A stretch of 64,000 nucleotides of DNA from NCBI GenBank assembly GCA_002868945.1, contig PKTX01000041.1, forward strand, positions 65,407 through 129,406, given 5' to 3'. Origin of the DNA: Desulfobulbaceae bacterium. Its GTDB lineage: Bacteria > Desulfobacterota > Desulfobulbia > Desulfobulbales > SURF-16. Positions 20,599 through 60,649 of the stretch are shown one piece after another. Both the position numbers and the translations under genes were made by a program. A model generated the notes under the pieces. That model saw nothing but the letters and a program-made list of their open reading frames with translations, was not told where the DNA came from and searched no databases. Numbering within the stretch: the stretch's first letter is position 1; every line of letters begins with the position of its first letter.

Positions 20599-20712
20599 CC
20601 GCCGGGCACGCAGCATATCGGGCATATGTGAGTTTTGTTTTCGTGGCAACGAAAAAGTCGGTCAGGTCAGCGAGCCTGCGAGACTCCGAAACAGAAATTA
20701 TTCAAGATGGCC
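20599..20712. repeat. Half copy of the MITE family (one B-type end only)
   Basis: It aligns from the central GGGCAC...CATATGTGAG core through CGAGACTCCGAA to ATTATTCAAGATGGCC. No opposite end was found. Confidence 0.55.
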
Positions 20713-20723
20713 ATAAATAAGAG

Positions 20724-30309: not shown

Positions 30310-30324
30310 GTACCATACGAAATT

Positions 30325-30380
30325 CCTGCAAAAAAAGAGGGGAGAGGCATGTGATTGCCTCTCCCCTCTTTTTTTGCAGG
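30325..30380. terminator. 25-bp perfect hairpin, bidirectional terminator
   Basis: CCTGCAAAAAAAGAGGGGAGAGGCA-TGTGAT-TGCCTCTCCCCTCTTTTTTTGCAGG lies between the convergent pilin and mshG-like genes. Confidence 0.7.
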
Positions 30381-30409
30381 AATGCATAAGGGCTTAATTG
30401 GCAAAGGAA

Positions 30410-31654: not shown

Positions 31655-31657
31655 GTC

Positions 31658-33289
31658 TTATTCCCTCAGCTCCAGAGAGAGGCGCAGTACCTCATCCAGG
31701 GAGGTGACACCGCTTAACACCTTGGCGAGGCCGGCCCGACGCAGGTCCTTGAAGCCCTGGCGCTGCGCCTGCCGGGCGATTTCCCGGGAAGTGGCGCGTT
31801 CCATGATCAGTTTTTCAATATCGGTGGAGAGCTCCAGTATCTCGTAAATGGCGGTCCTGCCCCGATAGCCGGAGTTGTCACACTGGGGGCAACCCTGCGG
31901 TCGGTAGATGATCAGGTCATCGGTGGGCGTGTCGGGAAAGAGTTTGCTGATGGCCGGCGTGATTTCCTGGGGGCTCTTGCAGGCCGGACAGAGGCGGCGC
32001 GGCAGGCGTTGGGCCAGGACAAGGCCCAGGGAGGAGGCGATGAGAAAGGGCGGGATACCCATGTCAATAAGGCGGGTCACGGCCCCGCAGGCATCATTGG
32101 TGTGCAGGGTGGAAAGGACCAGGTGGCCGGTGAGGGCGGCCTGAATGGCAATCTCCGCGGTCTCCACGTCCCGGATTTCGCCGATCATGACAATATCGGG
32201 GTCCTGGCGCAGAATGGAGCGCAGGGCGGAGACAAAGGTGAGGTTGGCCTTGAGGTTGACCTGCACTTGATTGACGCCGGGCAGGTCATACTCCACCGGA
32301 TCTTCAACCGTGATAATATTCTTTTCCGGGCTGTTGATCTTGTTGAGTGCCCCGTAAAGAGTGGTGGTCTTGCCGCTGCCGGTGGGGCCGGTGACCAGGA
32401 TGATTTCGTGCGGCATGGCCAGGTGGTGACGGAAGATCTTTTCCTGCTCAGGCTCGAAACCAAGCTCGCTGAGATTGATCTGGACCTTACTCTTGTCCAG
32501 CAGGCGCATGACCACCTTTTCCCCCTTGCGCAGGGGAAGAATGGACACCCTGATGTCGAATTCCCTGCCAGAGATGGGCAGCTCGATACGGCCGTCCTGC
32601 GGCTTGCGGCGTTCACCGATATCGAGCTGACTCATGATCTTGATGCGGGAGATGAGGTTGGGGTGCATCTCCAGGGGATAGGAGCGGATATTGTGCAAGA
32701 CGCCATCGATGCGGCAGCGGACCCGCACCTCCTGGAGGTCCGGCTCAATGTGGATATCACTGGCCTCCCGGCGCACCGCTTGGATGAGAATGTCGTTGAT
32801 GGCGGCCACGGCCTCGCTTTCGTCCGCCTCGCCGTTCTGGTCGCCGCTGCTCTGACCGCTCAGGGCGGCATATTGCTGGTCAATGGTCCGGGCCAGCAGA
32901 GAGTCTATGGCCACACACGGCACCAGGGTGGCATTGATATGGGCGGAAACCGCATCAATGGCAAAGATGTTGAGGGGATCGGCCAGGGCCACCAGGATCT
33001 CCCCGGGCCGCTTGCCGATGGCCAGGACCTTGTTCTTGCGGGCGACATTCTCGGGGATGGTGGCCACCACCTCCGGATCAAGGACGATTTTGTTGAGATC
33101 CACATAGGGGATCTGCAGCTGGCGTGACAGGGTGTGGGCCACCGCCTCCTCGGTGACAAAACCCAGATCAACCAGGGCCTGCCCCAGTTTGATATCGTTT
33201 TCGCGGCCGAATTTGAGGGCCTGGCCCAACTGGGTCTCCGTGATCAGGCCGCCGTCAACCAATATGTCGCCGAAACGTTTTTTTGCCAT
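31658..33289 (-). CDS. mshE: GspE/PilB-family assembly ATPase with an MshEN-type N-terminal domain
   Basis: GPTGSGKTT Walker A, Asp and His boxes, and a tetracysteine CPAC...CPQC. The N-terminus carries the tandem motifs RFGDILVDGGLITETQLGQAL and KLGQALVDLGFVTEEAVAHTLSRQ. Confidence 0.92.
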   Translation of the reverse strand: MAKKRFGDILVDGGLITETQLGQALKFGRENDIKLGQALVDLGFVTEEAVAHTLSRQLQIPYVDLNKIVLDPEVVATIPENVARKNKVLAIGKRPGEILVALADPLNIFAIDAVSAHINATLVPCVAIDSLLARTIDQQYAALSGQSSGDQNGEADESEAVAAINDILIQAVRREASDIHIEPDLQEVRVRCRIDGVLHNIRSYPLEMHPNLISRIKIMSQLDIGERRKPQDGRIELPISGREFDIRVSILPLRKGEKVVMRLLDKSKVQINLSELGFEPEQEKIFRHHLAMPHEIILVTGPTGSGKTTTLYGALNKINSPEKNIITVEDPVEYDLPGVNQVQVNLKANLTFVSALRSILRQDPDIVMIGEIRDVETAEIAIQAALTGHLVLSTLHTNDACGAVTRLIDMGIPPFLIASSLGLVLAQRLPRRLCPACKSPQEITPAISKLFPDTPTDDLIIYRPQGCPQCDNSGYRGRTAIYEILELSTDIEKLIMERATSREIARQAQRQGFKDLRRAGLAKVLSGVTSLDEVLRLSLELRE

Positions 33290-33318
33290 AGCTTACCAGC
33301 TGTCAGGAAGAGGTTGTC

Positions 33319-34176
33319 TCATGAGGCGGGCCTGCCGAACCGGCCCCGGAAGCCGGCAAGGGGCGCCATGTCAAGGGAGGTCGCGGCATCCTTGATGCTC
33401 TTTTTGTCAATATGCTGTTTGCCGGCGGCATATGACATGAGCAGGGCCCGTGACATCAGTTTGTTGATCAGGCGGGGCGTGCCCCTGGTGTAGCGATAAA
33501 CCATCTTGGTGACCCGGGCCGGCGGCGTCAGGTCGGCCCGGCCCACCCGATTAAGGCGGAAATTGATATAGGCGGTCATCTCGGCGGCGGACAGGGGCTG
33601 CAGGGTCTCGGAAATGGTAATACGCTGCCGGAGCTGGCGCAGCGATGGTCTGTAGATCTTTTCCCTCAGCTCGGGCTGGCCTACAAGAAGAATCTGCATG
33701 AGCTTCTCCTTGTCCGTCTCAAAATTCGATAAGAGGCGCAGCTGTTCAATGGACTCTTCCGGCAGGCTCTGGGCCTCGTCAATGATCACCAGGAGCCGTT
33801 TGCCTGCGGGGTTGCGGCGCACCAGATAGTCGTAAATTTTCTGGAACAGGGCCGGGGCGCTCTGGTCGCTCTCCTGCCGGGAAAGGGCGTTCAGATCCTG
33901 CAGGATGGCAAAGAGCAGGTCGCGGGGCGTCAGTTGCGGCGCAATAATATAGGCGGTGTCGTAACGGTTGTGCAGATAGCTCCCCAGTTTGCGCAACAGC
34001 ATGGTCTTGCCGGTGCCCACCTCGCCATAGATGATGAGAAAACCTTCGCCACTTTCCAGGCCGTAGCGGATAACCTCGGCCACGGCCGCGTGGGCCCGGG
34101 AGGGGAAGAAAAAATCCCGGTCAGGAGTGAGGCGAAAAGGCTCTTCCTGTATGCCGAAAAAATGCAGGTGGTTCAT
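33319..34176 (-). CDS. mshM: ExeA/MshM-like AAA ATPase
   Basis: FGIQEEPFRLTPDRDFFFPS N-terminus, GEVGTGKT Walker A and IIDEAQ Walker B. Confidence 0.8.
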   Translation of the reverse strand: MNHLHFFGIQEEPFRLTPDRDFFFPSRAHAAVAEVIRYGLESGEGFLIIYGEVGTGKTMLLRKLGSYLHNRYDTAYIIAPQLTPRDLLFAILQDLNALSRQESDQSAPALFQKIYDYLVRRNPAGKRLLVIIDEAQSLPEESIEQLRLLSNFETDKEKLMQILLVGQPELREKIYRPSLRQLRQRITISETLQPLSAAEMTAYINFRLNRVGRADLTPPARVTKMVYRYTRGTPRLINKLMSRALLMSYAAGKQHIDKKSIKDAATSLDMAPLAGFRGRFGRPAS

Positions 34177-35558
34177 GGCTCCGGGCTGCTTTTCTTTTTC
34201 TTCTTGTGGGTCTCGGGTCTAAATTCCTTATGGACATTATCGCTTAAGGCCTCATCGACAAGCCCCTGGCGCTCTCTGGCCTGGGCAGCCATGCTCTCCA
34301 TGGAAACAATGGTCGGGGTCAGGAAGATCATCAACTCATAGTTTTCCAGACTGCTCTCCTTGTTCTTGAAGAGATTGCCGAGAATGGGCAGGCTGGCCAG
34401 GCCGGGCACGCGGCCCTTGTTGAGATCCTCGCCGCTGACATGGATGCCGCCGATAACCACGGTGACCTGATCTTCCAGAAAGAGATTGGTGGTGATTTCC
34501 TGCCGGTTGATGAGGGGTTCACCATCCACGGCCGAGGATTGGTCGATACTGTCGTTGGTTACATTGACATCCAGGTTGACAAAGCGGGTCTTGATAATGC
34601 GGGGGGTCACCTTGAGGCTGAGGTTGGCCTCGCGGAACTCGGTGTTGATCACATCGCCGGACTGCGAGGTATAGGGCACCTCCTTGCCCTGTTTGATCTC
34701 CGCCTCATGGCCGTCAAGGACCAGCAGGGAGGGGGTGGAGAGGACGTGCAGCAGATTGTCCTGGGCCATGGCCTGCAGATCGATGTTGAGGTTCATGTTG
34801 TCCCATATAAAACCGATATTCATGGCCGTGGTGGCCGCGGAAACACCGAGGTCCGAGATAATGGAGACCGGTTTGCTTTTGGTGGCCAGGATCAGGTCGT
34901 TGCCGTAGTTCTGGTAGCCCCAGCGGATACCGAGCTGTTCCTTGCCCTCCTTGCTGATTACCACCACCCGCGCCTCAATGTGGACCTGCGGGGTGGGCCG
35001 GTCGATCTGGCTCAGCATTGCCTTGATTTCGCTGACGTTCTGCTGCTGGTCTTTGATGATCAGGCAGCTGTCGTTATTGGTTGCCGTGATAATGCCCTGG
35101 TCGCTGAGCAGGTGGTCAAGCTGGCCCTTGAGTTTGCTGCTGTTGCCGTAATCGGTGCAGACCCGGGCCATGGTAATGCCCTTGCGTGTCTTTTTGTAGC
35201 TCTCCCGGCTTTCCACAAGAATGGCGCTGTTGCTCTCCGAGTAGTGCAGGTCCTTGGCCCGCATGACCAGCTCAAAGACCTCGTAGAGGGTGACATTATC
35301 CATCTCAAAAGAGATGGTGTCGGTAATGGCATCGGCAACGTAGATGTTGATGCCCGCCTGCCGGCCGATGGCGCGCAGCAGGGTGGAGACCTCCAGGTCT
35401 TCACACTGCAGGGAGGCGGGAAAGTCACGTAACCTCTCCACCAGAACATGCTGATCCTCCTTGTTTTGGGCCTGGGCCCAAGGCGGCAGGAGTTGGCAAA
35501 AGAGAAGGGCCACAACAAGGCAGGCGCCGAGCAGGTAGGGGGATTTGAAATGTGTCAT
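34173..35558 (-). CDS. mshL: Secretin (MshL/PilQ/GspD family)
   Basis: Signal peptide and a C-terminal secretin domain (VPYTSQSG..., VPGLASLPILGNLFKNK, ELMIFLTPTIV). Confidence 0.88.
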   Translation of the reverse strand: MTHFKSPYLLGACLVVALLFCQLLPPWAQAQNKEDQHVLVERLRDFPASLQCEDLEVSTLLRAIGRQAGINIYVADAITDTISFEMDNVTLYEVFELVMRAKDLHYSESNSAILVESRESYKKTRKGITMARVCTDYGNSSKLKGQLDHLLSDQGIITATNNDSCLIIKDQQQNVSEIKAMLSQIDRPTPQVHIEARVVVISKEGKEQLGIRWGYQNYGNDLILATKSKPVSIISDLGVSAATTAMNIGFIWDNMNLNIDLQAMAQDNLLHVLSTPSLLVLDGHEAEIKQGKEVPYTSQSGDVINTEFREANLSLKVTPRIIKTRFVNLDVNVTNDSIDQSSAVDGEPLINRQEITTNLFLEDQVTVVIGGIHVSGEDLNKGRVPGLASLPILGNLFKNKESSLENYELMIFLTPTIVSMESMAAQARERQGLVDEALSDNVHKEFRPETHKKKKKSSPEP

Positions 35559-36031
35559 TGGGCCTTATCCCTGGCAGCCGGTCGGCCGCCGAAGTCTATA
35601 TCAAGAGTGTCAAATTGCATGGTGTGGCTCCGGGCTTTTTTCGTCAACAAGACCCTTGTTGCCGTGATCTCGGTGATAAGGGCGCCATCCACCATGTCAC
35701 CCACCTTTACCAGCTGGTCATTGATCACTGCCTGGGGAGTGCCGGTGGGGCTCCAGAGAATGGCCTGCAGAATGAAATCAACAAAAATATCCTGCTCTGC
35801 CTCGGCCACCTGTTTGAGACGAATACGCCGACTATCCGGCCAGTTAAAGGGATCACGCTGAGGCAGGTCGCTGTTGGTCAGCCTGCCGGCGGGGGGAAGT
35901 TCCAGCAGCTCCAGGGTGGCGGCCCTTGCCGCCGGCAGCGGCCAGAAAGGGCTGCCAAGCAGCAGGAGCGCCAGGCCGACAGCGGCCCGGCCCCCTAAAC
36001 TCTTTGTGGGGCGTGTCGTCTTACAGGCCAT
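35555..36031 (-). CDS. MshK-like pilus biogenesis protein (tentative)
   Basis: Small secreted protein located between the PilO-like gene and the secretin. The start was taken at ATG 36031 (MACKTTRP...), which overlaps the upstream stop. Confidence 0.45.
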   Translation of the reverse strand: MACKTTRPTKSLGGRAAVGLALLLLGSPFWPLPAARAATLELLELPPAGRLTNSDLPQRDPFNWPDSRRIRLKQVAEAEQDIFVDFILQAILWSPTGTPQAVINDQLVKVGDMVDGALITEITATRVLLTKKARSHTMQFDTLDIDFGGRPAARDKAQ

Positions 36032-36701
36032 CTCTTGCCTCCAGGCGACCCAGGTCCACCTGAAAATCCACCAGGCTTTTTTCTGTCGGGTCAGCGGCAT
36101 GGGCCGTCAGTTCGATTCCATCAAGAAGGCCGATTTCCGGACTCTTTTCCAAAAAGGAGAGATAGAGAAAAAAGTTCTCAAAATAACTGCGGCCCTGCAA
36201 ACGGACGGGATGAAAGGTAAATTCCTCCATGGATCTGCTCTCTTTGCGGCTCATCTTGAGCAGGTCAGGCTGAATATCCACCGGTGCCGAGCCGGTCAGG
36301 GTGAAGATGACTTGATGAAAGCGATCTTCATTGCCCTGGTGCTGCCACTGTTCCCGTAATAATTGTTCCTGCAGGGTCAGTATCTCCAGGGTCTGATCCT
36401 TTTGCCGGATTTCTCCGGCCAGTTTGAGAAGATGGCCGGCAAGAAGATCGGTCTGACCGACAACGGCCTGGGCTTCAATGTCGCGGATGTTGGCCTGCCT
36501 CTTGTGGATTTTGTCCTGGCGTGGCGCAACCAGCAGGACAAAGGCTCCATAGGCACAGGCCAGGCCGATGAGCAGGGTGAGGAACAGTTGCCTGACCTGT
36601 TGGGCCAGTTCCGGGTCGGCCCGCATGACAAGGTAGCCTTTCTTGAGGATGCCCGGTATTTCTTGGAGTGTACGTGTCATATTTTCGTAGAAAAATGTCA
36701 A
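36021..36701 (-). CDS. PilO/MshJ-like pilus assembly protein
   Basis: One N-terminal transmembrane segment followed by a coiled coil. Called by position after the PilN-like gene, with a 4-nt overlap. Confidence 0.6.
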   Translation of the reverse strand: MTFFYENMTRTLQEIPGILKKGYLVMRADPELAQQVRQLFLTLLIGLACAYGAFVLLVAPRQDKIHKRQANIRDIEAQAVVGQTDLLAGHLLKLAGEIRQKDQTLEILTLQEQLLREQWQHQGNEDRFHQVIFTLTGSAPVDIQPDLLKMSRKESRSMEEFTFHPVRLQGRSYFENFFLYLSFLEKSPEIGLLDGIELTAHAADPTEKSLVDFQVDLGRLEARDGL

Positions 36702-37255
36702 GTAAGGCGCATCTGGATGGTGAACTCAATACGTTCCTGGTCCTTGTCCGTGGACCGGTCCGTCACGGTGAGGGAGACATTGGCGAAGACGCTCAAGGCC
36801 TGCATGTGATGTATCATGTCAACCAGATCGTTATAGTCAAGGGCCGTGCCCTGTATCTCGCCGCTATTGCCGGTAAAGGTCAAGCTGCGCAGGCGTACCG
36901 AATCGGGCACCAGGGCGGCGATGTGGCGTAAGGGCCGGCTGAACCTTTTTTTATGGGCGCCGATCTTGGTAAGACCGGCAATGTCGGTATTTTTCCGGCG
37001 GATGGCATTGTCCTTGTCCTGCAGATTTTTTTTGAGTCGGGCAACCTGACTGCTCAATTCGGTGGCTTGATCGGCCTGGGTTTCCAGGTGGACAATCTGT
37101 TTATTGAGGTCGGTCAGGCGACCGTTGAGGAGCTGGATCCAGACAACAAAAAACAGGGTGAGCAGGGCAGCCATGCCCACAAAGAGAATGGGGATCAGGT
37201 GCTTGATCCGGTCGGCCAGGGGTTTTTGGGGGATCAGATTGATACGTTGTTGCAT
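36698..37255 (-). CDS. PilN-like fimbrial assembly protein
   Basis: MQQRINLIPQKP N-terminus, a single transmembrane segment, and a coiled coil. Confidence 0.7.
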   Translation of the reverse strand: MQQRINLIPQKPLADRIKHLIPILFVGMAALLTLFFVVWIQLLNGRLTDLNKQIVHLETQADQATELSSQVARLKKNLQDKDNAIRRKNTDIAGLTKIGAHKKRFSRPLRHIAALVPDSVRLRSLTFTGNSGEIQGTALDYNDLVDMIHHMQALSVFANVSLTVTDRSTDKDQERIEFTIQMRLT

Positions 37256-37264
37256 TCTCTTCCT

Positions 37265-38395
37265 CTAACTCAGCACGCCGGTGCTGATGGCCTCAAAGAG
37301 GTTGTTGTCAAAGGAGGCCTGCTCGTTTTCCATGATGTCCTGCACGGTGATGTCGAGACTGGCCGCCAGCTCCGCGGCCAGGGGCTGCCAGGCCGCTTCA
37401 CCGCCGCCGATAAAGGCGGTTTTGATCTGGTTGCCTTTGATGACGGCGTTGAAATAGTCACGCGTACGCATCAACTCAAGAGAGACCTGATTTATGTAGG
37501 TGGCCCAGTTCTGGTTGGTGGGCCGCGGCTCTGGCCTGGAGGCGGGAGGCGGGGGAACGTCTGTTTCAGGGGCTGACGCCGCCGTGGCTGAATCATCGCG
37601 GTCCTCCTTGGTGGCAACCAGAAAATTGGCCAGCAGGTCGTCGGAGCTGGGGTCGAACAGAGAGTCGTCCTGGCGGAGCGGGTCTTCTGCCGCCGGCATG
37701 ACCGGTCCGTTGATCTCCTCTTCCGCTCTTTGTCCTTCGGAGGTTGTACTGTTGTCATCCTCTTGGACGGGACGTTTGAGGTTGACGTCGCGGGTCAGGC
37801 TAAGATCCTTGTTGTCATAAATGGCAATGGAAACCGATGCGGGCCACAGAAGGACGATGAGCGAGGCACCGTTATGGGGTAGGCGACGGCGCGACTCCAG
37901 AAAGGCGCAGGCGGAAAAGACATCGGGCTCCAGGGCCACGGGGTTCAGCCTGTAATGGTTCAGGGTGGAGCGCATCTCCTGAAATATCTGCGCCGGAAAG
38001 AGAAAGACATTGAGCTGCAAGGAGTCCTTGAGTTCCTTACTTACCTGCCAGTCGTAGATGAAGTCGGCAAGGGGTGTCTCTATTATCTTGTTGATGTGGT
38101 AGGGCAGGATCTTGGCCACCACCTCCCGCGGCACCTTGTTGATGGTCAGATTCAATACCTCGAATTGGTCCAGGGGCAGTGAGATGGCGACATTGCCCCT
38201 GGGATTGGTGACAGAGGCCATGAGCTGGTGGATGCTTTTGGCCTCAACAGGGGGGCGTTCGCTCCAGCCTAAAGGAGTGGCGGCTGCGGCACCGGTGGGG
38301 GTGATGCCTTTGACGGCCAGCAGGCCGCCCTGGTGGTTACCCACCAGGGCGTAGGTGTTGATTTTTTTGGTAAAAGGCCATGGCATGGGGGTCAC
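37265..38395 (-). CDS. PilM/MshI-like pilus assembly protein
   Basis: Called by position upstream of the PilN-like gene. It has an actin-like fold pattern and an internal acidic, Pro-rich low-complexity insert. Confidence 0.6.
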   Translation of the reverse strand: MTPMPWPFTKKINTYALVGNHQGGLLAVKGITPTGAAAATPLGWSERPPVEAKSIHQLMASVTNPRGNVAISLPLDQFEVLNLTINKVPREVVAKILPYHINKIIETPLADFIYDWQVSKELKDSLQLNVFLFPAQIFQEMRSTLNHYRLNPVALEPDVFSACAFLESRRRLPHNGASLIVLLWPASVSIAIYDNKDLSLTRDVNLKRPVQEDDNSTTSEGQRAEEEINGPVMPAAEDPLRQDDSLFDPSSDDLLANFLVATKEDRDDSATAASAPETDVPPPPASRPEPRPTNQNWATYINQVSLELMRTRDYFNAVIKGNQIKTAFIGGGEAAWQPLAAELAASLDITVQDIMENEQASFDNNLFEAISTGVLS

Positions 38396-39000
38396 TCTCC
38401 TGCCACGTCCGGCATGGCGGGGGGGGCTGGAAAATCAGGCGGCAGTATCTGTTCGGCAATGGCCTGTTGCACGGCCTGCCGGAGGTGCTCGTTGTCCGGG
38501 GCCAGCTCGTATGCCTCCCTGAAAAGGCGGCCGGCCGGAAAGCCAAGATCAAGGCGACTCAGAAGAATAGCCATGTTGAGCAGCGGTTCCGGCTGCTGCG
38601 GCCCCAGTTCGGCGGCCTTGTCAAAATAGTAGAGGGCGCTCCAGAAATCGCCGGTCCGGCTCAGGGCAAGACCTTTCTTATTGTAAAACTCCATCTGCTG
38701 CCGGGGGGAGGCGTGTGCGGGCGGCTCTCCCACCCGGGGAACAGTGGCGGCAGCCTGATCGCCTCCGCTTATGGGGGGGCGCTCCTGCTCCCTGGTCGGC
38801 CTGTCATGGAAAAGTACCTCTTTGAAAGGGGGGAGCTGCAGGCCTGCCGCTATAAGGATGACAAGCACTATTATGGCCAGCAGATAAGGCAGGTACCCCT
38901 TTTTTTGGGCAGCCGCAGCGGTTGAGTCGCTCTGCTCCGGGGGCGAATCAGCCTCCTCCTGTTGCTGGATTTTTTCCAGGGCATCAAACAGCTTACTCAA
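38392..39000 (-). CDS. TPR-repeat pilus biogenesis protein (MshN-like)
   Basis: One transmembrane segment and C-terminal TPR-like repeats (ALYYFDKAAELGP...). Confidence 0.55.
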   Translation of the reverse strand: MSKLFDALEKIQQQEEADSPPEQSDSTAAAAQKKGYLPYLLAIIVLVILIAAGLQLPPFKEVLFHDRPTREQERPPISGGDQAAATVPRVGEPPAHASPRQQMEFYNKKGLALSRTGDFWSALYYFDKAAELGPQQPEPLLNMAILLSRLDLGFPAGRLFREAYELAPDNEHLRQAVQQAIAEQILPPDFPAPPAMPDVAGE

Positions 39001-39066
39001 AAAAGGTCACCTGAAGGGCTGGAAGTGTGTGGGCCGCCTTTGTGTAGTGGCGCCGGGAAAAGGGCT

Positions 39067-39666
39067 CTAAAAGTTGGCGGGCGGCCGGCCGGAGCCATCA
39101 ATATTATCCGTATAGTCGCGGTCATCGTTAATATAGAAGATTGCGCCGATCACCTTACCGTTTGCATCCCGTTCATCCCCAGGATAGTAGGCCCAGCCGG
39201 TGGATTCACTGGCAATACGTGCCGGATTGGTGGCCTCGGCCAGGGAGCGGTCGGCAACACCGGCCGGTCGATCAGCCATGCCTGAGGTCATGTTGGGCAG
39301 ATTGACGCCAGGCAGGGCCTCGTCCGGCACATTGGAGTAATCATTGGAGCGCACCAGGCGCAGATTGCGCAGGGGCTCGGGCCGGGTGGCCAGTACCAGG
39401 GCATTGCGCCGTACCTCTTCCAGGGTGGGCCAGTCCGGGTTATCGCCCGTGGGGCCTGTATTGACGCCGGAGAGCAGGATCTTGGCATGGGCCAGTTCAA
39501 TGCCACCGCGGATGGCGGCCAGTTTGCCTTTTGTGGCAGCGATCTTGGCCTCCTTCTGCATGTCAAGATAATAGGGGATGGCCATGGAGGAGAGCAGGCC
39601 GAGGAGAATGATGACTATGATCATCTCTATGAGGGTGAAACCTCGATCATCGTGGTACAGCTGCAT
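39067..39666 (-). CDS. Type IV pilin / GspG-like pseudopilin
   Basis: MQLYHDDRG/FTLIEMIIVIILLGLLSSMAIPYY prepilin N-terminus, followed by a GspG-like EAKIAATKGKLAAIRGGIELA helix. Confidence 0.8.
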   Translation of the reverse strand: MQLYHDDRGFTLIEMIIVIILLGLLSSMAIPYYLDMQKEAKIAATKGKLAAIRGGIELAHAKILLSGVNTGPTGDNPDWPTLEEVRRNALVLATRPEPLRNLRLVRSNDYSNVPDEALPGVNLPNMTSGMADRPAGVADRSLAEATNPARIASESTGWAYYPGDERDANGKVIGAIFYINDDRDYTDNIDGSGRPPANF

Positions 39667-39758
39667 AGTGCCCCCTTCCAGCTTGGTGGAGTGTGCCTAA
39701 CGTCTTTTAAGTTGGTAAAAATTAAGCACTTTATATCATATTTGTCGAAGAGTCTAAA

Positions 39759-39920
39759 GGCCATCTTGAATAATTGCTCTTTCAGAGTCTGGCAGGCTCG
39801 TTTACCTGGCCGATTTTTTCGTCGCTCCGAAAATAAAAATGCTCAGATCTGCTCGATATGCTTACCTGCCCGTAGGAGATGAGGGAGCCTGCGACACTCC
39901 GAATTATTTCATTGTTGACC
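39759..39920. mobile_element. MITE-like element, B-type left end and decayed right end
   Basis: GGCCATCTTGAATAATTGC and a core that aligns closely to the 5752 copy up to GACACTCCG. The right end AATTATTTCATTGTTGACC is diverged, and no TSD was seen. Confidence 0.7.
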
Positions 39921-39957
39921 ATAGCCTCATGGCCAGTTGCTTGGCAAAAAGTTGTGG

Positions 39958-40473
39958 CTACCGGCTGTATCTGACCTCGATGATGCGACTGACCGTGGCC
40001 CGTGTTGCCGTGGCGCGGATCTTCAGGATATCACCGGCCGGATCAAGGGGGGACGGGCCCACAAGGGTGGTGGTTATATTGTTGATGGTGGGCGTCGCGG
40101 ACCAGCCCGCCGGCCAGTTGCCGCCGCCGTCATCTTCGAGGATGCGCAGCTGGGTCACCGATTCGGCGGCATAGAGGGCCTGGGCCCAGAGATAATCCTC
40201 GGCCGAGGCCTGGGAGGAGATCATGGTATAACGACCAATGAGCACTCCGAACATGGCCACCACCACGATGATAAAGAGGGCGGCAATAAGGCCGATGCCG
40301 TCTTGATTTTGCAGAACCTTACCAGCCCGTTGAAAAACTACTACGCTTACTGACGCGTCGTCAAAATTCGGCTCAAAATGCTCATTTACCCCATGTAAAC
40401 TGTGCTTTTTCGCCTCATTTTTCCTAGCCTCAGTTTCGCTCGCTACCTTTTTCAACGGGCTGTTACGGAACAT
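39958..40473 (-). CDS. PilX/MshP-like minor pilus protein carrying an in-frame MITE insertion
   Basis: The hydrophobic segment QNQDGIGLIAALFIIVVVAMFGVLI has a PilX-type N-terminus. Codons 4-51 after ATG 40473 are contributed by the 140-bp element plus its TSD. Confidence 0.6.
   Translation of the reverse strand: MFRNSPLKKVASETEARKNEAKKHSLHGVNEHFEPNFDDASVSVVVFQRAGKVLQNQDGIGLIAALFIIVVVAMFGVLIGRYTMISSQASAEDYLWAQALYAAESVTQLRILEDDGGGNWPAGWSATPTINNITTTLVGPSPLDPAGDILKIRATATRATVSRIIEVRYSR
40323..40462. mobile_element. MITE-like element, C-type ends
   Basis: A perfect 15-bp TIR (CAGCCCGTTGAAAAA / TTTTTCAACGGGCTG) is flanked by direct TTAC repeats (40319-40322 and 40463-40466). The core shares GGTAGCGAGCGAAAC and other segments with the A- and B-type copies. 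Confidence 0.9.
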
Positions 40474-41293
40474 TGCGCACCTGGATCTCTTTATGGAAGT
40501 CAAGGGTGATGCCATTTCTGTCCAGGGTGAAATTCACCCGGACCATGGCGTTTCTGGTCAGGCTGGCCGGGGTGAATGTAAAGCTGAGGCTGCCGGGCTG
40601 GATATTGGTGAGAAGCGGATAGGCCGTGGCGCTGTCAAGTGCGGCTGTCAGATCGTTACTGGTGGTGACTGTTGCCTGGCTGCGAGACAGGATGCCTGAG
40701 GAGCTGTCGTAATCGTAGCGGATCACTCCCTGCACCGGATAATAGCGTTTGGTGACCGAGTGGCCGCCGATGATGGCTGTACCCAGGTCCATATTGTTGC
40801 CGACTACCTGGGTGACTTGATAAACCTTGCGGTTGCTGATTGACGAAAAGTCATTCCAACGGGTGTTATAAATAGATATGAGCGTATTGAGCGGCAGTGT
40901 ATTGGTGGAGAGGTCCCTGATCCTGGTGGTGGTGCCCACCGGTTGATACAGGCCGGCCAGGCCGTTTGCTGACAGGGCATTGTCATCGATGATGCCGAAG
41001 TTGATGGTTGTTGTCGATGAGGTATCAACGGCATTGGGGACCATATGATGGATCTCGCGTTCCATGCGCATCAGGGCCAGTTTGCCCTCCTCAAAGAGCT
41101 CCATGGCGGTGTCTGTCTCGGCAAAACCCTTGAAGCTGGTGGTGATAACCTCGCTGCCCAGCACCCCTATGATGCCCAGCAGAAGAATGACGGTGATCAG
41201 CTCGATCAGGGTAAAGCCGTGCTCCTTTCTCCTGTCTGACAGGCTGCGACGATACTCGTGGTGGCCGGCAAGGGGACGCCGCTGTCGCTCCAT
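40463..41293 (-). CDS. MshO-like minor prepilin
   Basis: KEHG/FTLIELITVILLLGIIGVLG prepilin motif. The start is ATG 41293 or ATG 41332, giving a 26- or 39-aa leader. Confidence 0.7.
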   Translation of the reverse strand: MERQRRPLAGHHEYRRSLSDRRKEHGFTLIELITVILLLGIIGVLGSEVITTSFKGFAETDTAMELFEEGKLALMRMEREIHHMVPNAVDTSSTTTINFGIIDDNALSANGLAGLYQPVGTTTRIRDLSTNTLPLNTLISIYNTRWNDFSSISNRKVYQVTQVVGNNMDLGTAIIGGHSVTKRYYPVQGVIRYDYDSSSGILSRSQATVTTSNDLTAALDSATAYPLLTNIQPGSLSFTFTPASLTRNAMVRVNFTLDRNGITLDFHKEIQVRNVP

Positions 41294-41319
41294 GGGCGTT
41301 CCGGTGCCATGCCTGTCTC

Positions 41320-41964
41320 TTAAAAATTGCATGTCACCGCCACCAGTTCAAAGGTTTCGCCAAGGGGAGAGGCAACCGTGACAATGATGCGCTTGCTGTC
41401 CGTGGCATTGGCCGCCAGGCTGCCGGCCGAGGCGGTGTCTGCATCAATGGTGAGCTCATTGCTGGCTATATAATCGATACTGACCTGACGGCTGAAATCT
41501 GTCCAGGACCCGGTAAGGGGCGCACCATCCTGATCGTAAAAGGTGTTGCCGGGGCCGCCCGGTTCGGCCAGGCCGTTATAGTCATCCACATCATCCCACT
41601 GGTCGCGGTTGTGGGGGCCGCCGGCCTCGCCATCGAGGCCGAGGGTGGAGGCGTTTCGGGTCGGTTCCGGACAGATGAGGGTATAGGTACTGTTGCCGCG
41701 GCCGGTGCCGCTTTCAGTGCTGCAGATCGGTCCACCGCCATTGGGGGTGTTCTCGTCCCAGCGTTTTGCCAGGATCTCATCCATCATGGCCTGGCCCAGG
41801 CCAATGGCTCGTTCCCGCAGCAGGGGATCAGGGCTGTGGGTCACTGCGCTGAAATAGGGGATGATGATCATGACGGCCACAGCCATGATCATCATGGTGA
41901 TGATCAGCTCTATAAGAGTGAAGCCGCCCTTGTGATGAGGCGTTGCCGTACGTATCATGGGCAT
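41320..41964 (-). CDS. MshD-like minor prepilin
   Basis: HHKGG/FTLIELIITMMIMAVAV prepilin motif. Confidence 0.7.
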   Translation of the reverse strand: MPMIRTATPHHKGGFTLIELIITMMIMAVAVMIIIPYFSAVTHSPDPLLRERAIGLGQAMMDEILAKRWDENTPNGGGPICSTESGTGRGNSTYTLICPEPTRNASTLGLDGEAGGPHNRDQWDDVDDYNGLAEPGGPGNTFYDQDGAPLTGSWTDFSRQVSIDYIASNELTIDADTASAGSLAANATDSKRIIVTVASPLGETFELVAVTCNF

Positions 41965-42473
41965 GTGGCGCCCTCCATGACATAGCCGGTCTGCAGGCAG
42001 ACGGTGAGGTGCTCGCTGCCGGCAATGGTGTATGTCAAGCCGTTGGCGGGAGCGCTGAGGGGCTGTTCGTAATCGGGGGCTGCCGGATCCGCCGTAATGG
42101 GTACGCCCAGGCCGTTAAACCAGAGACCGTCCCCGGCAGTGGGATCGCTGATGGGAATGGTGCCCTCGGCCAGCAGGGCGCGGTTGGTGAAGTCCGCCCC
42201 GGCGTTTTCACCACCGCCGCGCCGGCCAATGGTGTAGGTGGTGGCACTCACGGAAATACCCCAGGCCGTGCTGCCGCCGACAAAACTCCTGGTCATGGCC
42301 TGATGCTGGGCATAACGGATGGCCCGCTTAAACTCCTTGATGGCCGCTTCTTCCTGCATGTCACCCGGCCATTTGGCAGTGGCCGCCACTGCAATAATGC
42401 CGAGCAGAACGATAATGGTGAGTAGTTCAATCAGGGTGAAACCATGTCGGTTGACGAAGTGCCGGGCCATCAT
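41955..42473 (-). CDS. MshC-like minor prepilin
   Basis: MMARHFVNRHG/FTLIELLTIIVLLGIIAVAA. ATG 42473 overlaps the MshQ-like stop (ATGA). Confidence 0.7.
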   Translation of the reverse strand: MMARHFVNRHGFTLIELLTIIVLLGIIAVAATAKWPGDMQEEAAIKEFKRAIRYAQHQAMTRSFVGGSTAWGISVSATTYTIGRRGGGENAGADFTNRALLAEGTIPISDPTAGDGLWFNGLGVPITADPAAPDYEQPLSAPANGLTYTIAGSEHLTVCLQTGYVMEGATCP

Positions 42474-45400
42474 TGCACCACCTCCCGCCAGTTGATGATC
42501 CGGTCGTTGCCACGGTAGATGCCGAAGGTGAACTCCCCACAGGTGAGGTCCGGAGCGCTGCAGTCCGTCTCGCTGAGCCACACTGGAGCGGTGAGGCAGA
42601 CATCAAGCTGTTCGCCTGCCGTGCCGGTGGTGGTGACGGTCAAGGTGGCCCGGCCAGCCGCCAGTGGGTCCGGGTCGATGTTGGTCACCCGTCCGGCCGA
42701 TGGTGCCGAGCAGAAGGCGAGACCGGTGGTACAGTGGTCATCGCTGTTAATACTCCAAGTAGTGCCGTCATAGTAGTGCGCCTCAAAGGGAGAGGCGGTG
42801 ATGTCCTCGGTCTCGGGGCCGAAGTTGTTAAAGATTTGGATTCTGCCGTGTCGCAAGTTGGTGCCGGTGATGCCGGCCTGGCTGAAGCCCTGACAGCCTG
42901 AGCCGGTATCGTGGCAAACCGAGTCGGCATCGGTGAGTTGGAGGGCGTTGATGGCCAGATCAACACTGGCGGCAAAGGGTGCCAGCGGGCTGAGTATGGC
43001 CGGGCGCGCGTAGGTAATGGTGTCGGTAAGGGTGAGTTGGACAGTGCCGTTACAGTCGCTGGTGTCGCCGGTCGCAGGATTGACCGTGCCGGCGGTCGGA
43101 CTCAGACCAAGGCTGTTACCTGATGAGTCTGTGTAGGAGTAGGCCAGGTTCATGGGGGTGGCAAATTTCCAGAAAGCGCCGCAATCGTAATTGCGGGTGA
43201 TGGCCGGCGTGGGTGCGCCGTTCATGGCGCTTATGGTAATAATGGGCGGTGTGGCAAAGGGAAAGGGCTCACCCAGATAGCTGTAATTGCCTACCACGCA
43301 GGCATCGGTGAAAGTGGGAGGGGCCGGGTTGATGCTGACGACAAAATGGTCGGGCCGAAAGCGGCCGATATAGGGTGAACAGAGCTCCATCGGCTCACCC
43401 AGGAAGCCGCCGCTGACGTTCTCATTCAACTGCACGATACCAACTTCGGGATAAGCGCTATCATTGACGGTAACACTCGCGTCGGCGGCGGCAAAGGTTA
43501 CATCACCACTGGCGTAGCTCAAGCCGGGATCATTAGCGGCGGCGGGCAGTACCAGGGCGGCGGCTGGTTGGCCGATGTTCCAGGCCGGCACCCGGGCCAA
43601 AGGGAGGCCGGGGTCGGTTAAGGTTGAGCTGCCGCAATCGTCCCACACTCCGTCGCTGTCGGAATCCCGCCCCGCTGTCCAGCGCAGGCTTGTGAAGGTA
43701 AGGGAAAAGGCCTCGCCCGCCTTCTTGAACACGCCACCGTCGGCGTCCTGCGCCTTGGGATTGCCGGCGGCATCGGCAAAGAGGGCCAGGGGGCGGACGA
43801 CAAAATCGTTACTGGTGTCAGTGGCAGGGATGGTGTCGCCGGTGGGGACCCCGGCGGCGTCGGTGACCGGGATGTCGAGGTCAATGCGCAGGCTGTAGCG
43901 GCCCGCATCCGTCCAGGTGGAGTTGAACGGGGCGGTACCGTTGCCGTCAAAGGCCAGCTCCACGGTGGCGCCGTTGCCGGCGCTGCTCAGATCCGCACTG
44001 GTGTTGCCGGCGATGGTGATGGTGTTGTCAGCCAGCCCTTGGTCTGCTATCGGTACCAGATACTGGAACGTGGCATCAAGGGTCTCGTTGCTGACTCCGG
44101 CAATGCAGGCACCTGTCTGGTCGTCCGTGCGCACCACCCGAATCCGCTGCAGGAGCGCGGGGCTCGGCGGCGCTACATTGGAGGGCTTACCGGCGATCTG
44201 GGTAGTGAAGGGGCTCGCGGCGTCAGCGTCGTTGTCGTTGCCATCGATGAGCACCCCCACTTCGGAAAAAAACAGCTGACAAGCAGCGCCACCCCCATTG
44301 TTGAGGCATATCGTGTCGTTGTCCGCTATGGGTGAGGTGGCCACGGCAGCAAGGGTAATCGTTTCCGCCGTGGTATGGTGTAAATCGACGGTGGTGGAGC
44401 CACCGTCGAAGGTGACAGGGTCTGGACTCCAGCCCGAGACTGGGGAAGTCAGATCAACAGTCACTTCGCCGGTGTAGGTCACAGTGCAGTCGGCGTCGGC
44501 GCAGGCCAGGATGGTAACCCTCTCGGCCATGCAGGTGATGCCCGTGCCGTCGTGTTCAAGACGGATGTGATCCAGTGGGGTGCTTGGGCCGCCGCAGAAG
44601 CCGCGATGGTCGACGTTTTCCACGGCGGAAGCGTCGTAGGCAAGTTCGCCGAGCCAGAGAATGTCGCCGCCTGCAGCGATGGTCCCTGTGGCGTTTAGGT
44701 TGTTGGTGGTCACGTCACCGGTGGTGTAGATCAGCGCATTGAGGGTTCCGCTGTTGCCGTTGTTAAAGGTGAGGTTGTCGTAGCCGACAATGAGCAGGTC
44801 TTCCGGGGCTCCATCCTTGTTGACATCGGCATGCCAACTGAATTCCACGTCATTGCCGATGAACAACCGTGCCGTGCCGCTGCCGACCACCTCGATAACG
44901 TTGCGGCTGCTGTTGAACTCCAGGTTCTCGATCCAGTAATCTACCCCGCCGCGCAGTACCAGCTCGTCGCGCCAGTTGAGCCTGAGCGTCCGGATTCGAT
45001 AGACCTGTTGCGCGCCGCCGTCACTGATGGTGCCGTGTCCGCCGCCGGTGATGTCGCGGTAGTCGCTGACGCCGCCGCTGCCCAGGGTGTAGTCCTCTTG
45101 CCAGCCGAGGCTGATGTCGGTGTTCCCGCTACTGTGTTGAAAGGAGGGCATTTCAGGCTGGGCGGCGGGGAAACCGGAGGCGGTGCAGTCGCTGCTACCA
45201 CAGGTGTCAGCGCCCCAAGGGTTGAAATCGATGGTGTTGGCGGTTTCCAGGATATTATCGGGGTCACTCACCTGGGCATTCCAACCAAACTCGATGGTAC
45301 CCGCCGCTGTGCTGTTCTGCAGGGCGCTGGGGAAGATGGCGGCGCAGCTCCCGGACTCCGGTGGCAGACAGCTACGGGCGCTGCCATCCCAGTTGAACCC

Positions 45401-46747
45401 GGCGGCCTGGTTGGCGTAACCCATTTGGATCTGGGCTGAGGAGAGGGGGGAAGCGAAGACCAGCACCTCGTCAATGGCCCCTTCAAAACGCCATCGAGCA
45501 GTTGATTCGCTGGAGCCATCAGGCTCGCCGCCTATTGCGGCAATGCCATTGTCAACGCCCCATGAACCGGTATAGGTGTCGGAGGCCACCATGTTCGCGT
45601 CCACATAGATGCGTCGTGTCTTGTTAACAGCATCATGCACTGCGGTGACAAAATGCCATTGGCCCTCCTGGATGACAACGCCGGTGTCGAGGATAATCGG
45701 ATTAACATTTCTGGAAAAAAAACGCAGCCTGCCATTGCCTCCATCGTTAAGACTGAAGGCGAAACCACCGCTGTTGTGTTGATCGTCCACGAAAATACGC
45801 TGGTCACCACCAAGGTTATCCGCCCGTATCCACGCTGAAATGGTGAAGCTTCCTTGGAGATTGGAGAACGATGGCGGTAAGGCGATGTAATCATCCATGC
45901 CATCTAAGGCAGCAGCCATACATATACCGCCGGTTTCTTCAGTTATATCCGTGGGGATAAGGCCGTTGACGGCAGTGCCATGGTGGTCGTTGCCGCTGCT
46001 GTCCTCCACCTCGCCTGCCGTACCATTCCAGGAAGCTTCATCCATTCTGAGATCGAGGAGGGCAGAGGGGGAGGCTTGAAAAAACAGGATGGCATCGCCG
46101 TTTGTTACGGAACTGGTATTGAAGGAATACTCCGTGTAGTCGGTGTCGGAAACTTCGATGCCGATGGTTGCGCTGGTGCCGTTGGTATTTCCGGCGCCGT
46201 ACTGGAATTTGATCTCGTTACTGGTTTCGTAAAGGATAATCTGAAAGGTGTAGCTGCCGGAATGTGAATAGTGCGGCACATTGATCCAGCTGGCCACAAA
46301 GATGCGATTTGGGGCGGTGCCCATTGTTTCATAGGTTACTGATCCGCCCCGGCTCGGCTCGAGGTCGTCCCAATAGCCGGCAATAACCCGATCTGCCGGG
46401 CTTGCTGAGCAGGGTCCTTGGCCAACATTGGTGATGGGCAGTGCTTCATTGGTGTAATCCTTGTGAAAACCCAGGTCGGTGCCAAGGTGCAGGGCGCCGT
46501 TACTCAAGATCCTGAGCTGGCTGTAGTCGGTCCCCGCAAAATTAAAGGTGAAGCCGATATTAACAAGTTGTTTGTCGTCGTCGGTGGGGTAACGCGTGCA
46601 GACCCCCTCCCAGGTGACATTGATCGGGGCCGATGCTTGCCAGGCGAAGGTGGCGGTATCATCATGGAAATAGGTCGCAGCCTGGGTGGGGCTCATATAT
46701 GGAAAAAGAAGGAAGCTCAACAGGGAAGCTATGAAAAGACGGGCCAT
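42470..46747 (-). CDS. mshQ: MshQ-like giant pilus-associated protein with a LamG/ConA-like domain
   Basis: About 1425 aa with a signal peptide (MARLFIASLLSFLLFPYMSPTQAA). A LamG-type segment (DDYIALP...FTISAWIR...GQWHFVTAV...IDEVLVF) is followed by long beta-rich repeats. ATG 46747 follows GAGGA, and the track start at TTG 46780 is less likely. Confidence 0.8.
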   Translation of the reverse strand: MARLFIASLLSFLLFPYMSPTQAATYFHDDTATFAWQASAPINVTWEGVCTRYPTDDDKQLVNIGFTFNFAGTDYSQLRILSNGALHLGTDLGFHKDYTNEALPITNVGQGPCSASPADRVIAGYWDDLEPSRGGSVTYETMGTAPNRIFVASWINVPHYSHSGSYTFQIILYETSNEIKFQYGAGNTNGTSATIGIEVSDTDYTEYSFNTSSVTNGDAILFFQASPSALLDLRMDEASWNGTAGEVEDSSGNDHHGTAVNGLIPTDITEETGGICMAAALDGMDDYIALPPSFSNLQGSFTISAWIRADNLGGDQRIFVDDQHNSGGFAFSLNDGGNGRLRFFSRNVNPIILDTGVVIQEGQWHFVTAVHDAVNKTRRIYVDANMVASDTYTGSWGVDNGIAAIGGEPDGSSESTARWRFEGAIDEVLVFASPLSSAQIQMGYANQAAGFNWDGSARSCLPPESGSCAAIFPSALQNSTAAGTIEFGWNAQVSDPDNILETANTIDFNPWGADTCGSSDCTASGFPAAQPEMPSFQHSSGNTDISLGWQEDYTLGSGGVSDYRDITGGGHGTISDGGAQQVYRIRTLRLNWRDELVLRGGVDYWIENLEFNSSRNVIEVVGSGTARLFIGNDVEFSWHADVNKDGAPEDLLIVGYDNLTFNNGNSGTLNALIYTTGDVTTNNLNATGTIAAGGDILWLGELAYDASAVENVDHRGFCGGPSTPLDHIRLEHDGTGITCMAERVTILACADADCTVTYTGEVTVDLTSPVSGWSPDPVTFDGGSTTVDLHHTTAETITLAAVATSPIADNDTICLNNGGGAACQLFFSEVGVLIDGNDNDADAASPFTTQIAGKPSNVAPPSPALLQRIRVVRTDDQTGACIAGVSNETLDATFQYLVPIADQGLADNTITIAGNTSADLSSAGNGATVELAFDGNGTAPFNSTWTDAGRYSLRIDLDIPVTDAAGVPTGDTIPATDTSNDFVVRPLALFADAAGNPKAQDADGGVFKKAGEAFSLTFTSLRWTAGRDSDSDGVWDDCGSSTLTDPGLPLARVPAWNIGQPAAALVLPAAANDPGLSYASGDVTFAAADASVTVNDSAYPEVGIVQLNENVSGGFLGEPMELCSPYIGRFRPDHFVVSINPAPPTFTDACVVGNYSYLGEPFPFATPPIITISAMNGAPTPAITRNYDCGAFWKFATPMNLAYSYTDSSGNSLGLSPTAGTVNPATGDTSDCNGTVQLTLTDTITYARPAILSPLAPFAASVDLAINALQLTDADSVCHDTGSGCQGFSQAGITGTNLRHGRIQIFNNFGPETEDITASPFEAHYYDGTTWSINSDDHCTTGLAFCSAPSAGRVTNIDPDPLAAGRATLTVTTTGTAGEQLDVCLTAPVWLSETDCSAPDLTCGEFTFGIYRGNDRIINWREVVQ

Positions 46748-46839
46748 GTGAAGAGTCCTCAAAAAAAACAGGCTGAACAAGCATCTCGGGAATCTACCGT
46801 ATCACAGTTAATGAAGTAGGTAAAGTTTTTGCACCATCG

Positions 46840-59284: not shown

Positions 59285-59452
59285 GGGTATCTTGCATAAT
59301 GAGATATTTCGGAGTCTCGCAGGCTCGCTTGCCTGTTCGCTTTTGAAAAGCATGGAAAATAAACAGCGAAACATATCACGCCGAACGTGAGCAGTTTATT
59401 TTCGTTGCCACAAAAACAAAACGGACAAAGATAGCAATTATTCAAGATGCCT
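59285..59452. mobile_element. MITE-like element, B-type ends
   Basis: GGGTATCTTGCATAATGAG ... GCAATTATTCAAGATGCCT. The core carries TTCGGAGTCTCGCAGGCTCGCTTGCC and GAAAATAAA. The flanks are CTTA and TTAC, an imperfect TSD. Confidence 0.8.
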
Positions 59453-60576: not shown

Positions 60577-60649
60577 GCAGTGCGGCCCATGCGTGCCGCA
60601 ACCAGAGGCGATCATCCCGCTGACAGACAAGCGGGAGGGCGTCGCCAGA

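Follow-up and report, generated by a model that had tools for sequence, protein, structure and literature searches.

In-frame insertion of a miniature transposable element at an mshO-mshP gene junction lengthens the predicted leader of a minor pilin in a Desulfobulbaceae genome

The DNA under study is a stretch of 64,000 nucleotides, referred to here as the window, from a Desulfobulbaceae bacterium (assembly GCA_002868945.1, contig PKTX01000041.1, positions 65,407 to 129,406). It includes a gene cluster for an MSHA-type pilus that specifies a DUF6701 MshQ-like protein, four N_methyl pseudopilins, an MshEN ATPase, a T2SSF protein, an AAA_22 protein, a secretin, and PilN. The cluster is matched in content by the orthologous locus L001. 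Within the cluster, the end of an mshO-like pseudopilin gene overlaps the start of a gene for an MshP/PilX-like minor pilin, and a 140-bp transposable element of the miniature inverted-repeat type (MITE) is situated at this overlap, in frame with the second gene. An earlier reading of the letters alone, the original prediction, had proposed both the pilus-gene setting and the MITE insertion. The former was supported by domain content. The in-frame insertion into the mshP-like gene was confirmed by terminal inverted repeats (TIRs), a target site duplication (TSD), empty junctions at two orthologous loci, 46 orthologues that lack the insert, and at least 38 full copies of the element elsewhere.

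The TIRs are perfect over 15 bp (CAGCCCGTTGAAAAA) and are the sole two matches to this sequence in the window when up to two mismatches are allowed. The number of matches expected by chance was 0.19, and two matches were found in none of 100 shuffles. Immediately outside both ends of the element is a direct repeat of TTAC, or GTAA on the coding strand, which is exactly 4 bp and not longer. The element has a G+C content of 46%, lower than that of the window (56%) and of the adjacent coding sequence (61%). The element possesses no transposase gene, and the 46-residue peptide from its sole stop-free frame matched no entry in Pfam or NCBIfam. It occurs once in the window and the label 'C-type' that was applied originally therefore cannot rest on further copies there. 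Copies in other Desulfobulbales genomes are 86-96% identical to the window copy over the full length, with the nearest 95.7% identical. Judged by this identity and by the perfect TIRs and TSD, the insertion looks recent.

Within the target GTAA are both the stop of the mshO-like gene and, in the overlapping frame, codons 3-4 of the mshP-like gene. The coding strand reads GTGCGCA ATG TTC CGT AA|C AGC CCG TTG ... CGG GCT G|GT AAG GTT CTG CAA, in which bars mark the element ends and the first Lys codon of the downstream KVLQNQDG segment straddles the TSD boundary. Removal of the element with one TTAC yields the restored junction GTGCGCAATGTTCCGTAAGGTTCTGCAA. The mshO-like open reading frame (ORF) has the C-terminus VRNVP and the final codons CCG TAA. 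The element and TSD together add 144 nt, which is 48 codons, and mshP remains a single ORF: from the ATG at 40473 the product consists of MFR, the 48 stop-free inserted codons (NSPLKKVASETEARKNEAKKHSLHGVNEHFEPNFDDASVSVVVFQRAG), and KVLQNQDGIGLIAALF (fuller, KVLQNQDGIGLIAALFIIVVV). Comparison of the flanks, the TIR scan, and translation of the ORFs bore out the original prediction in its account of a 140-bp element with perfect TIRs and TTAC on both sides, of the mshO-like end CCG TAA with an overlapping mshP-like ATG in the restored junction, of 48 stop-free codons between Met-Phe-Arg and the hydrophobic helix, and of a duplicated GTAA that preserves the upstream stop. The insertion altered neither the mshO stop and its overlap with the mshP start nor the Shine-Dalgarno sequence and ATG of mshP. 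At the Shine-Dalgarno site the sequence GAGATCCAGGTGCGCAATGTTCC is identical in the window, at L001, and at the more distant locus L083, and the 11-nt overlap and the AGGTG placed 4 nt before the ATG are kept in all three. The locus is a clean natural example of a transposon that entered a translationally coupled junction without breaking either gene, as the TSD rebuilds the stop codon while the element adds exactly 48 sense codons. Coordinates of these features are collected in Table 1.

Table 1. Features of the mshO-mshP junction and of the repeat family
Feature	Position	Strand	Remarks
MSHA-type pilus gene cluster holding the insertion	30410..46780	(-)	domain content and synteny with L001
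MshP/PilX-like minor pilin gene	39958..40473	(-)	171 codons, of which codons 4-51 are the 48 inserted
mshO-like pseudopilin gene	40463..41332	(-)	N_methyl motif; unchanged by insertion
Native ATG of mshP	40471..40473	(-)	11-nt overlap with mshO end; same ATG and context in L001 and L083
Shine-Dalgarno-like AGGTG	40478..40482	(-)	4 nt upstream of ATG; untouched by insertion
140-bp MITE	40323..40462	(-)	TIRs and TSD; rod-like imperfect palindrome; frame +2 stop-free in mshP orientation
TIR arm CAGCCCGTTGAAAAA	40323..40337	.	exact match; partner arm is 40448-40462
TIR arm	40448..40462	.	coding strand carries in-frame TTG (codon 7), the start used by NCBI
TSD copy TTAC (coding strand GTAA)	40319..40322	.	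downstream side in gene orientation
TSD copy TTAC (coding strand GTAA)	40463..40466	.	contains TAA stop of upstream mshO-like gene
Native leader remainder KVLQNQDG	40297..40318	(-)	ends at invariant Gly, the presumed prepilin peptidase cleavage site
Hydrophobic N-terminal helix segment IGLIAALFIIVVVAMFGVLIGRY	40228..40296	(-)	Kyte-Doolittle maximum at residues 60-80; AlphaFold model
Core examples	L005-L082, e.g. L017 1401-1539, L057 2369-2508, L063 2330-2452, L082 2491-2629; window 40323-40462
Module CGGAGTCTCGCAGGCTCGCTTRCC	window 1077-1104, 5773-5808, 8025-8060, 19053-19080, 39780-39815, 59307-59342; also L058, L060, L013, L051, L084

The mshP-like gene also was said originally to have no in-frame start codon ahead of the hydrophobic helix. 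This holds for the region between the element and codon 70, a GTG within the helix that is the first canonical start past the element, but not for the element itself in which a TTG at codon 7, inside the TIR and without a Shine-Dalgarno sequence, is the sole canonical alternative start. A product from this TTG would retain 42 element-encoded residues. The NCBI annotation of the same gene (P0001, 165 aa), from a metagenome-assembled genome (MAG), starts at the TTG, which places the gene start inside a TIR and is an example of the annotation errors that such insertions produce.

The orthologous junctions, whose comparison had been suggested as a check, proved to be empty. A protein search returned 54 matches which comprised P0001, the identical gene of the NCBI Desulfobulbaceae MAG, 46 orthologues, and seven unrelated ORFs. 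The orthologues (116-161 aa, mostly 120-133) cover solely the non-inserted part of the protein and have N-termini of the form MFRKPLxNQDG|IGLIAA without the insert, and the seven unrelated ORFs match solely the 48 inserted residues. The syntenic locus L001, with the gene order mshQ-like, two pseudopilins, mshO-like, mshP-like, and pilin, has the empty DNA junction GTGCGCAATGTTCCATAAACC, which can be compared to GTGCGCAATGTTCCGTAAGG in the window after excision. The same junction in the metagenome-derived L083 is likewise empty. An empty allele of the same species was sought in a metagenome scan, which turned up only L083. The element at an mshO-mshP junction is known in one genome only. Past the element, the remaining 120 codons of mshP are undisrupted, with 72-73% identity to the nearest orthologue.

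The repeat family was scanned with a 21-nt core pattern in one genome per species, which gave 76 stretches; these stretches, L003, and the window copy supplied 38 full TIR-bounded copies. About 40 loci are present in one MAG alone. Slightly more than half of the extracted copies (22/38) are 140 bp and the rest are 158-207 bp, the longer copies carrying one to three extra hairpin modules of 18/21, 24/25, and 24/25 nt. Perfect 4-bp TSDs flank 23 of the 38 copies and consist of CTAA (nine copies), TTAG (five), CTAG (four), and one each of TTAT, ATAA, CTAT, TGAA, and GTAA. Most copies are intergenic and about 3 of the 38 sampled are truly intragenic. Rfam searches at E up to 1, in which the window copy and representatives of two other lineages were the queries, found no family. 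Insertion of the IS200/IS605 type was considered because TTAC is the target of IS608, and was ruled out as the flanking repeats vary among copies and are true duplications. The motif 5'-YTAR-3' is documented as the target of IS5 (PMC5009759). The 4-bp YTAR-type TSDs suggest that the family is mobilised by an IS5-type transposase: the CTAA, TTAG, and CTAG duplications, along with the presence of TIRs, are shared with the IS5 family and its derived MITEs (PMC5009759), to which the elements are likened by TSD motif. In contrast, the window target GTAA is off the YTAR consensus and keeps only the central TA (NTAN). A preference for insertion at the stop codons of genes was rejected, as the duplicated stop ends a long ORF in 6 of 38 copies versus 13% of control YTAR sites; some targets with TAA or TAG in them will happen to be stop codons. 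Solo TIR matches across all loci correspond solely to related MITE variants and to one mini-element of ~46 nt (L036, 6257-6302) which is barely more than two TIRs (CAGCCTGTTGAAAACTGCCGCGTTCTCTTTGTTTTGCAACAGCCTG).

Three further in-frame intragenic copies were confirmed, at L003, L084, and L058, each in a gene with insert-free homologues. The first is a 140-bp copy with a TTAT TSD located mid-gene in a conserved ~245-aa zinc-ribbon/HExGH membrane protein (P0048). This protein has 1570 homologues at E up to 0.001 and, among the best 150 of these, most match in two stretches that flank the insert. Alignment of P0048 with five homologues of ~245 aa revealed a clean 48-residue gap. The second is a 197-bp copy with a TTAA TSD that contributes 67 codons (197 + 4 nt) to a conserved protein of 178-180 aa (P0053); an insert-free homologue is from a C0613-tagged Desulfobulbaceae MAG with the same locus-tag prefix as P0001. 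The third, in MAG LH_M19 (L058 176-339, JAGXFQ010000036.1), is a 164-bp copy flanked by a CTAG/CTAA duplication which lies on the TAG stop of gspG and in frame in the leader of gspH. The GspH product reads MIWVTGTLT-[56 aa]-KAPPSSFG|FTLLEVMVV, and orthologues start M(I)W.TGTL.KAP..SSG|FTLIEV, which is the same leader without the insert. When translated from the upstream ATG, this GspH has the N_methyl motif at residues 72-93 and the GspH domain at residues 107-221. The deposited annotation (P0205, 157 aa) starts downstream, so that GspH is truncated and the prepilin motif is lost. As read from the sequence, the gspH leader insertion is an independent parallel to the mshP case. A probable additional example is P0341, a phosphomannomutase from an NCBI Desulfobulbaceae MAG, in which the 48-residue MITE peptide is in frame between domains I and II, ahead of PGM_PMM domain II, in an annotated protein without domain I. 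Through-ORFs at L057, L066, and L071 were discarded as spurious or as cases in which the element is upstream of the true start.

The openness of other copies in the same frame, another check that had been proposed, was found in most of the family: frame +2 in the mshP orientation is stop-free in 33 of 38 copies. One other frame is open in most copies, but is closed by a stop in the duplicated target, and stops interrupt the other four in all, or nearly all, copies. The sum of element length and the 4-bp TSD is divisible by three for the 140, 158, 161, 164, 182, and 197-bp forms and for all four confirmed intragenic copies, but not for the 165, 189, and 207-bp forms. Selection for translatability nevertheless was rejected. 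Dinucleotide shuffles of the element have at least one open frame in 57% of cases (6% for a specified frame), the extra modules vary between 24 and 25 nt and are not always multiples of three, variable positions between lineages are in the apical hairpin loop instead of at third codon positions, and in one lineage a loop shorter by 1 nt causes a frameshift onto a stop. For these reasons survivorship is favored over design and the open frame is viewed as incidental; purifying selection would leave inside genes only those copies that are in frame and a multiple of three in length.

As judged from the sequence, the N-terminus of the MshP-like protein agrees with how class III signal peptides are defined, namely as hydrophilic leaders that vary in length, terminate in Gly or Ala, remain in the cytoplasm, and are cut at the cytoplasmic face by prepilin peptidase (PMC10191384). 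In 44 of the 46 orthologues listed, Gly is followed by [I/F]GLIAAIF.IVVVAMFGVLIARY, with ~22 hydrophobic residues of the form [I/F]GLIAAIFxIVVVAMFGVLIARY. The annotated leaders of the orthologues are variable in sequence and 6-35 aa in length, most being 11 aa, versus 59 residues for the extended leader. The inserted segment is hydrophilic (grand average of hydropathy -0.80; seven Lys + Arg, seven Asp + Glu, and three His) and includes no hydrophobic window. In the AlphaFold model, residues 1-56 are of low confidence (predicted local distance difference test score ~47-60 for the insert), and residues 58-114 form a confident helix of 57 residues that is followed by a three-stranded sheet. The MshP-like orthologues have Ala at position +5 and no Glu5. 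This does not exclude a pilin-like protein because the cap subunit of the tip complex also is without Glu5 (PMC10191384). Naming of the protein as MshP is supported by the position of its gene after the mshO-like gene in the MSHA cluster.

The original prediction had named a longer N-terminus, inactivation, or uncoupled translation as outcomes, and had overlooked the placement of the insert in such a leader, ahead of an invariant Gly. These features suggest how the insertion was accommodated. A non-autonomous element inserted into GTAA at the mshO stop and mshP codons 3-4, and the 48 added hydrophilic residues fall between Met-Phe-Arg and KVLQNQDG, inside a short leader before the invariant Gly and the hydrophobic helix. 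This leader would be the part of a class III signal peptide that is cytoplasmic and variable. Prepilin peptidase then would remove the extended leader after Gly and the mature minor pilin would be unchanged. On balance, it is probable that the insertion is a tolerated, near-neutral extension of a cleavable class III leader, since the insert would lengthen only the discarded part of the precursor, and the position in the leader is the most likely reason for the tolerance. Possible costs would be less translation of mshP or RNase III-type processing of the 140-nt hairpin. The gspH case, in which the canonical motif G|FTLLE is present, supports the leader-extension reading by analogy, and the independent hits in mshP and gspH would indicate the cleavable prepilin leader as a specific tolerant site. 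Naturally long class III leaders, such as those of type IVb pilins and Streptococcus sanguinis pilins, likewise are hydrophilic, cytoplasmic, of variable length, Gly-ended, and removed by the peptidase (PMC10191384); in contrast, the MshP extension consists of 48 transposon-derived residues in a leader of 59 residues whose cleavage is presumed. If the extended leader is processed normally, it would constitute a natural experiment on how long a class III leader can be.

Several observations weigh against this account. The 171-aa product matched nothing in Pfam and NCBIfam, including N_methyl/TIGR02532; PilX_N was matched at sub-threshold level (E = 0.04-0.09) in two orthologues only; and Foldseek comparison of the AlphaFold model with the PDB gave no significant match, with nothing at E < 0.4. 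The MshP-like protein therefore departs from a canonical prepilin, and cleavage after Gly is an analogy. At 59 residues the leader is unusually long and could impair targeting by the signal recognition particle or cleavage, and a strong hairpin beside the start codon could severely reduce translation. The intact downstream ORF is no proof of continued selection as the insertion looks recent. With regard to the mobile element itself, no autonomous partner with matching TIRs (CAGSYYGTTGAAAAA) was found among solo TIR matches in the window and 84 loci, which sets the family apart from IS5, and tblastn with the IS5 transposase of a Pseudomonas plasmid produced no further match in the same set.

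At the RNA level, the element is predicted to fold into one rod-like hairpin with an energy of -42.7 kcal/mol alone (z = -6.7) and -63.5 kcal/mol in context (z = -4.1), and the base of the hairpin begins 12 nt after the A of the AUG. The structure could lower initiation or create a site for a double-strand-specific RNase. Termination of a ribosome at the mshO stop would unpair the stem base and, if so, translational coupling may persist. Two promoter-like sites were found in a scan of positions 39600-40800, at 39712-39739 (+) and 39947-39918 (-). Neither lies in the element, and the scan gave no terminator-like site anywhere in the region.

The position and strength of this hairpin form one basis for the main rival explanation, namely that mshP is inactivated or strongly weakened, either by a hairpin that blocks initiation or triggers RNA cleavage or by a 59-residue leader that blocks targeting or processing, and that the gene is a young pseudogene. 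The extended leader far exceeds the 11 aa of most orthologues, the recent look of the insertion makes the intact ORF weakly informative, and MITEs commonly inactivate genes (PMC10969869). However, the gspH leader of another genome bears a parallel in-frame insertion, and the two mid-gene in-frame copies in conserved proteins remain open which suggests that the products still work. In addition, the native Shine-Dalgarno sequence, the ATG, and a stop/start overlap that is permissive for coupling persist in the window, and the 120 codons downstream, at the identity to the nearest orthologue given above, are undamaged. Inactivation of mshP is considered a real but lesser possibility.

Co-option of the element is much less probable. 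In this scenario the hairpin would be regulatory, setting the mshO:mshP ratio as an RNase III site or translational attenuator, or the peptide would endow the precursor with a new property. In favor of this, the hairpin is strong and placed precisely at a translationally coupled junction, gspG/gspH is a junction of the same kind that also was hit, and conservation of the element core across phyla, described below, suggests some function at the nucleic acid level. Against this, the insertion is known in a single genome and is missing from the 46 orthologues and the two orthologous loci. Moreover, the target preference (NTAN, mostly YTAR) explains the hits on stop codons without selection, as is evident from the comparison with control sites, and variation between copies in the hairpin loop together with the frameshifted lineage imply that the peptide itself is not conserved.

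A still less likely explanation is that the insertion is an assembly artefact, in which a repeat was collapsed or wrongly joined into the pilus operon. The window derives from a contig of a MAG (the record of P0001 describes it as a protein of a Desulfobulbaceae MAG) and contains several repeat families, but a misjoin would not yield a perfect 4-bp TSD with exact restoration of a conserved junction. The element also is shorter than typical read pairs and single-copy in the window, and both flanks are collinear with L001. Finally, the idea that the 48 codons are ancestral mshP coding sequence, for which the open, stop-free segment might speak, is already refuted by absence of the segment from all 46 orthologues, by the TIRs and TSD that bound it, and by occurrence of the same sequence elsewhere mostly in intergenic positions or in unrelated genes.

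The original prediction regarded the locus as a rare case of a MITE that contributes coding sequence. That description is overstated. In-frame intragenic MITEs have been described for the Rickettsia palindromic elements (RPEs), ERIC, QMITE1 of Coxiella, and the MITEs of Anabaena, and such in-frame fusions have been called 'not unusual' in a review (PMC10969869); the three additional cases within the family noted above point the same way. The window case is a known kind of event and a clear, recurring example of it, for which there is a specific and plausible account of tolerance. The nearest likeness is to the RPEs, which are palindromes of ~100-150 bp with a stop-free frame that are inserted in frame in unrelated genes and add ~45-50 residues (Ogata et al., 2000, 2002, cited in PMC10969869). 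The Desulfobulbales family is RPE-like in at least four genes, specifying MshP, GspH, the zinc-ribbon membrane protein, and the conserved 178-aa protein, and thereby extends RPE-like 'selfish DNA in coding genes' to the Desulfobulbales. The likeness proposed is one of behavior rather than of membership, and a sequence relationship is not expected as the hosts are in different phyla. The two further differ in that about 3 of 38 sampled copies are intragenic here compared to roughly half in some RPE families, and in that the Desulfobulbales elements have clear TIRs and YTAR TSDs with evidence that favors survivorship over coding adaptation. ERIC/IRU, QMITE1, the Anabaena MITEs, and the Correia elements of Neisseria also are small palindromes that are found in ORFs, form in-frame fusions, and produce long RNA hairpins, but they have other sequences, hosts, and TSDs, with Correia elements duplicating TA. 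Correia elements are substrates of RNase III and carry a site for integration host factor. Literature searches found no paper that combines MITEs with prepilins or leader peptides, and none on MITEs in Desulfobulbaceae.

The 21-nt core pattern also matched Gammaproteobacteria, among them Cycloclasticus, Piscirickettsiaceae, Psychromonas, Stutzerimonas, Pseudomonas, and Atopomonas, and unannotated relatives are present on plasmids of Pseudomonas, Halomonas, and Fukatsuia. When ten lineage representatives were aligned, a central core of ~70 nt was at least 80% conserved (CAAGGcAAAAaGAGGCGAAAAAGCrCAGTTTAC..G..GTAAATGAGCATTTTGAGCC...TTT.ACGC) and eight of the ten had a total length of 137-140 bp. 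The arms and TIRs instead are lineage-specific (CAGCCCGTTGAAAAA, CAGGTCGTTGAAGAAC, GAGACCTTTGCACGAG, CAGGACTTACGCG, and TTTCTGTACTAAAAGT), and the TSD is a 4-bp YTAR in some lineages versus a 5-bp AT-rich sequence in the Cycloclasticus/Piscirickettsiaceae type. It may be speculated, as a rather unlikely proposition, that these elements form a cross-phylum superfamily of ~140-bp MITEs in which the core is a functional nucleic acid module, such as a hairpin for a host factor or transposase accessory, that was carried or re-captured by different transposition systems. If this is true, the stop-free frame in Desulfobulbales would be a recurrent source of in-frame peptide insertions by an RPE-like process outside Rickettsia.

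Other observations concern the effects of the TIRs on gene prediction. The N-terminus predicted for an rlmN-like radical-SAM ORF at L071 (2619-3746, minus strand), MKNGASEAETRIYALQGENE, corresponds to the left half of a MITE copy. The start of this ORF is the TTG of the TIR, and the start of P0342 likewise is inside a TIR. The TTG of the TIR either misleads gene callers or supplies starts.

A second MITE-like insertion in the pilus operon occupies part of the 290 bp that separate mshP from the next pilin gene (window 39754-39863). It is a copy of a different repeat family that also is present at 5747-5856 and 20630-20714. The module CGGAGTCTCGCAGGCTCGCTTRCC of the long MITE variants also is part of other repeat families of the window (Table 1), and MITE families seem to have hairpin modules in common. 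In L001, a Y1_Tnp transposase gene (8687-9151), IS200/IS605-like or REP-associated, is located between the pseudopilin genes and is absent from the window. Lastly, perfect palindromes at 30322-30383 and 60648-60702 of the window, with arms of 28 and 25 nt and loops of 6 and 5 nt, respectively, are terminator-like, and the former is just downstream of the T2SSF gene of the pilus cluster.

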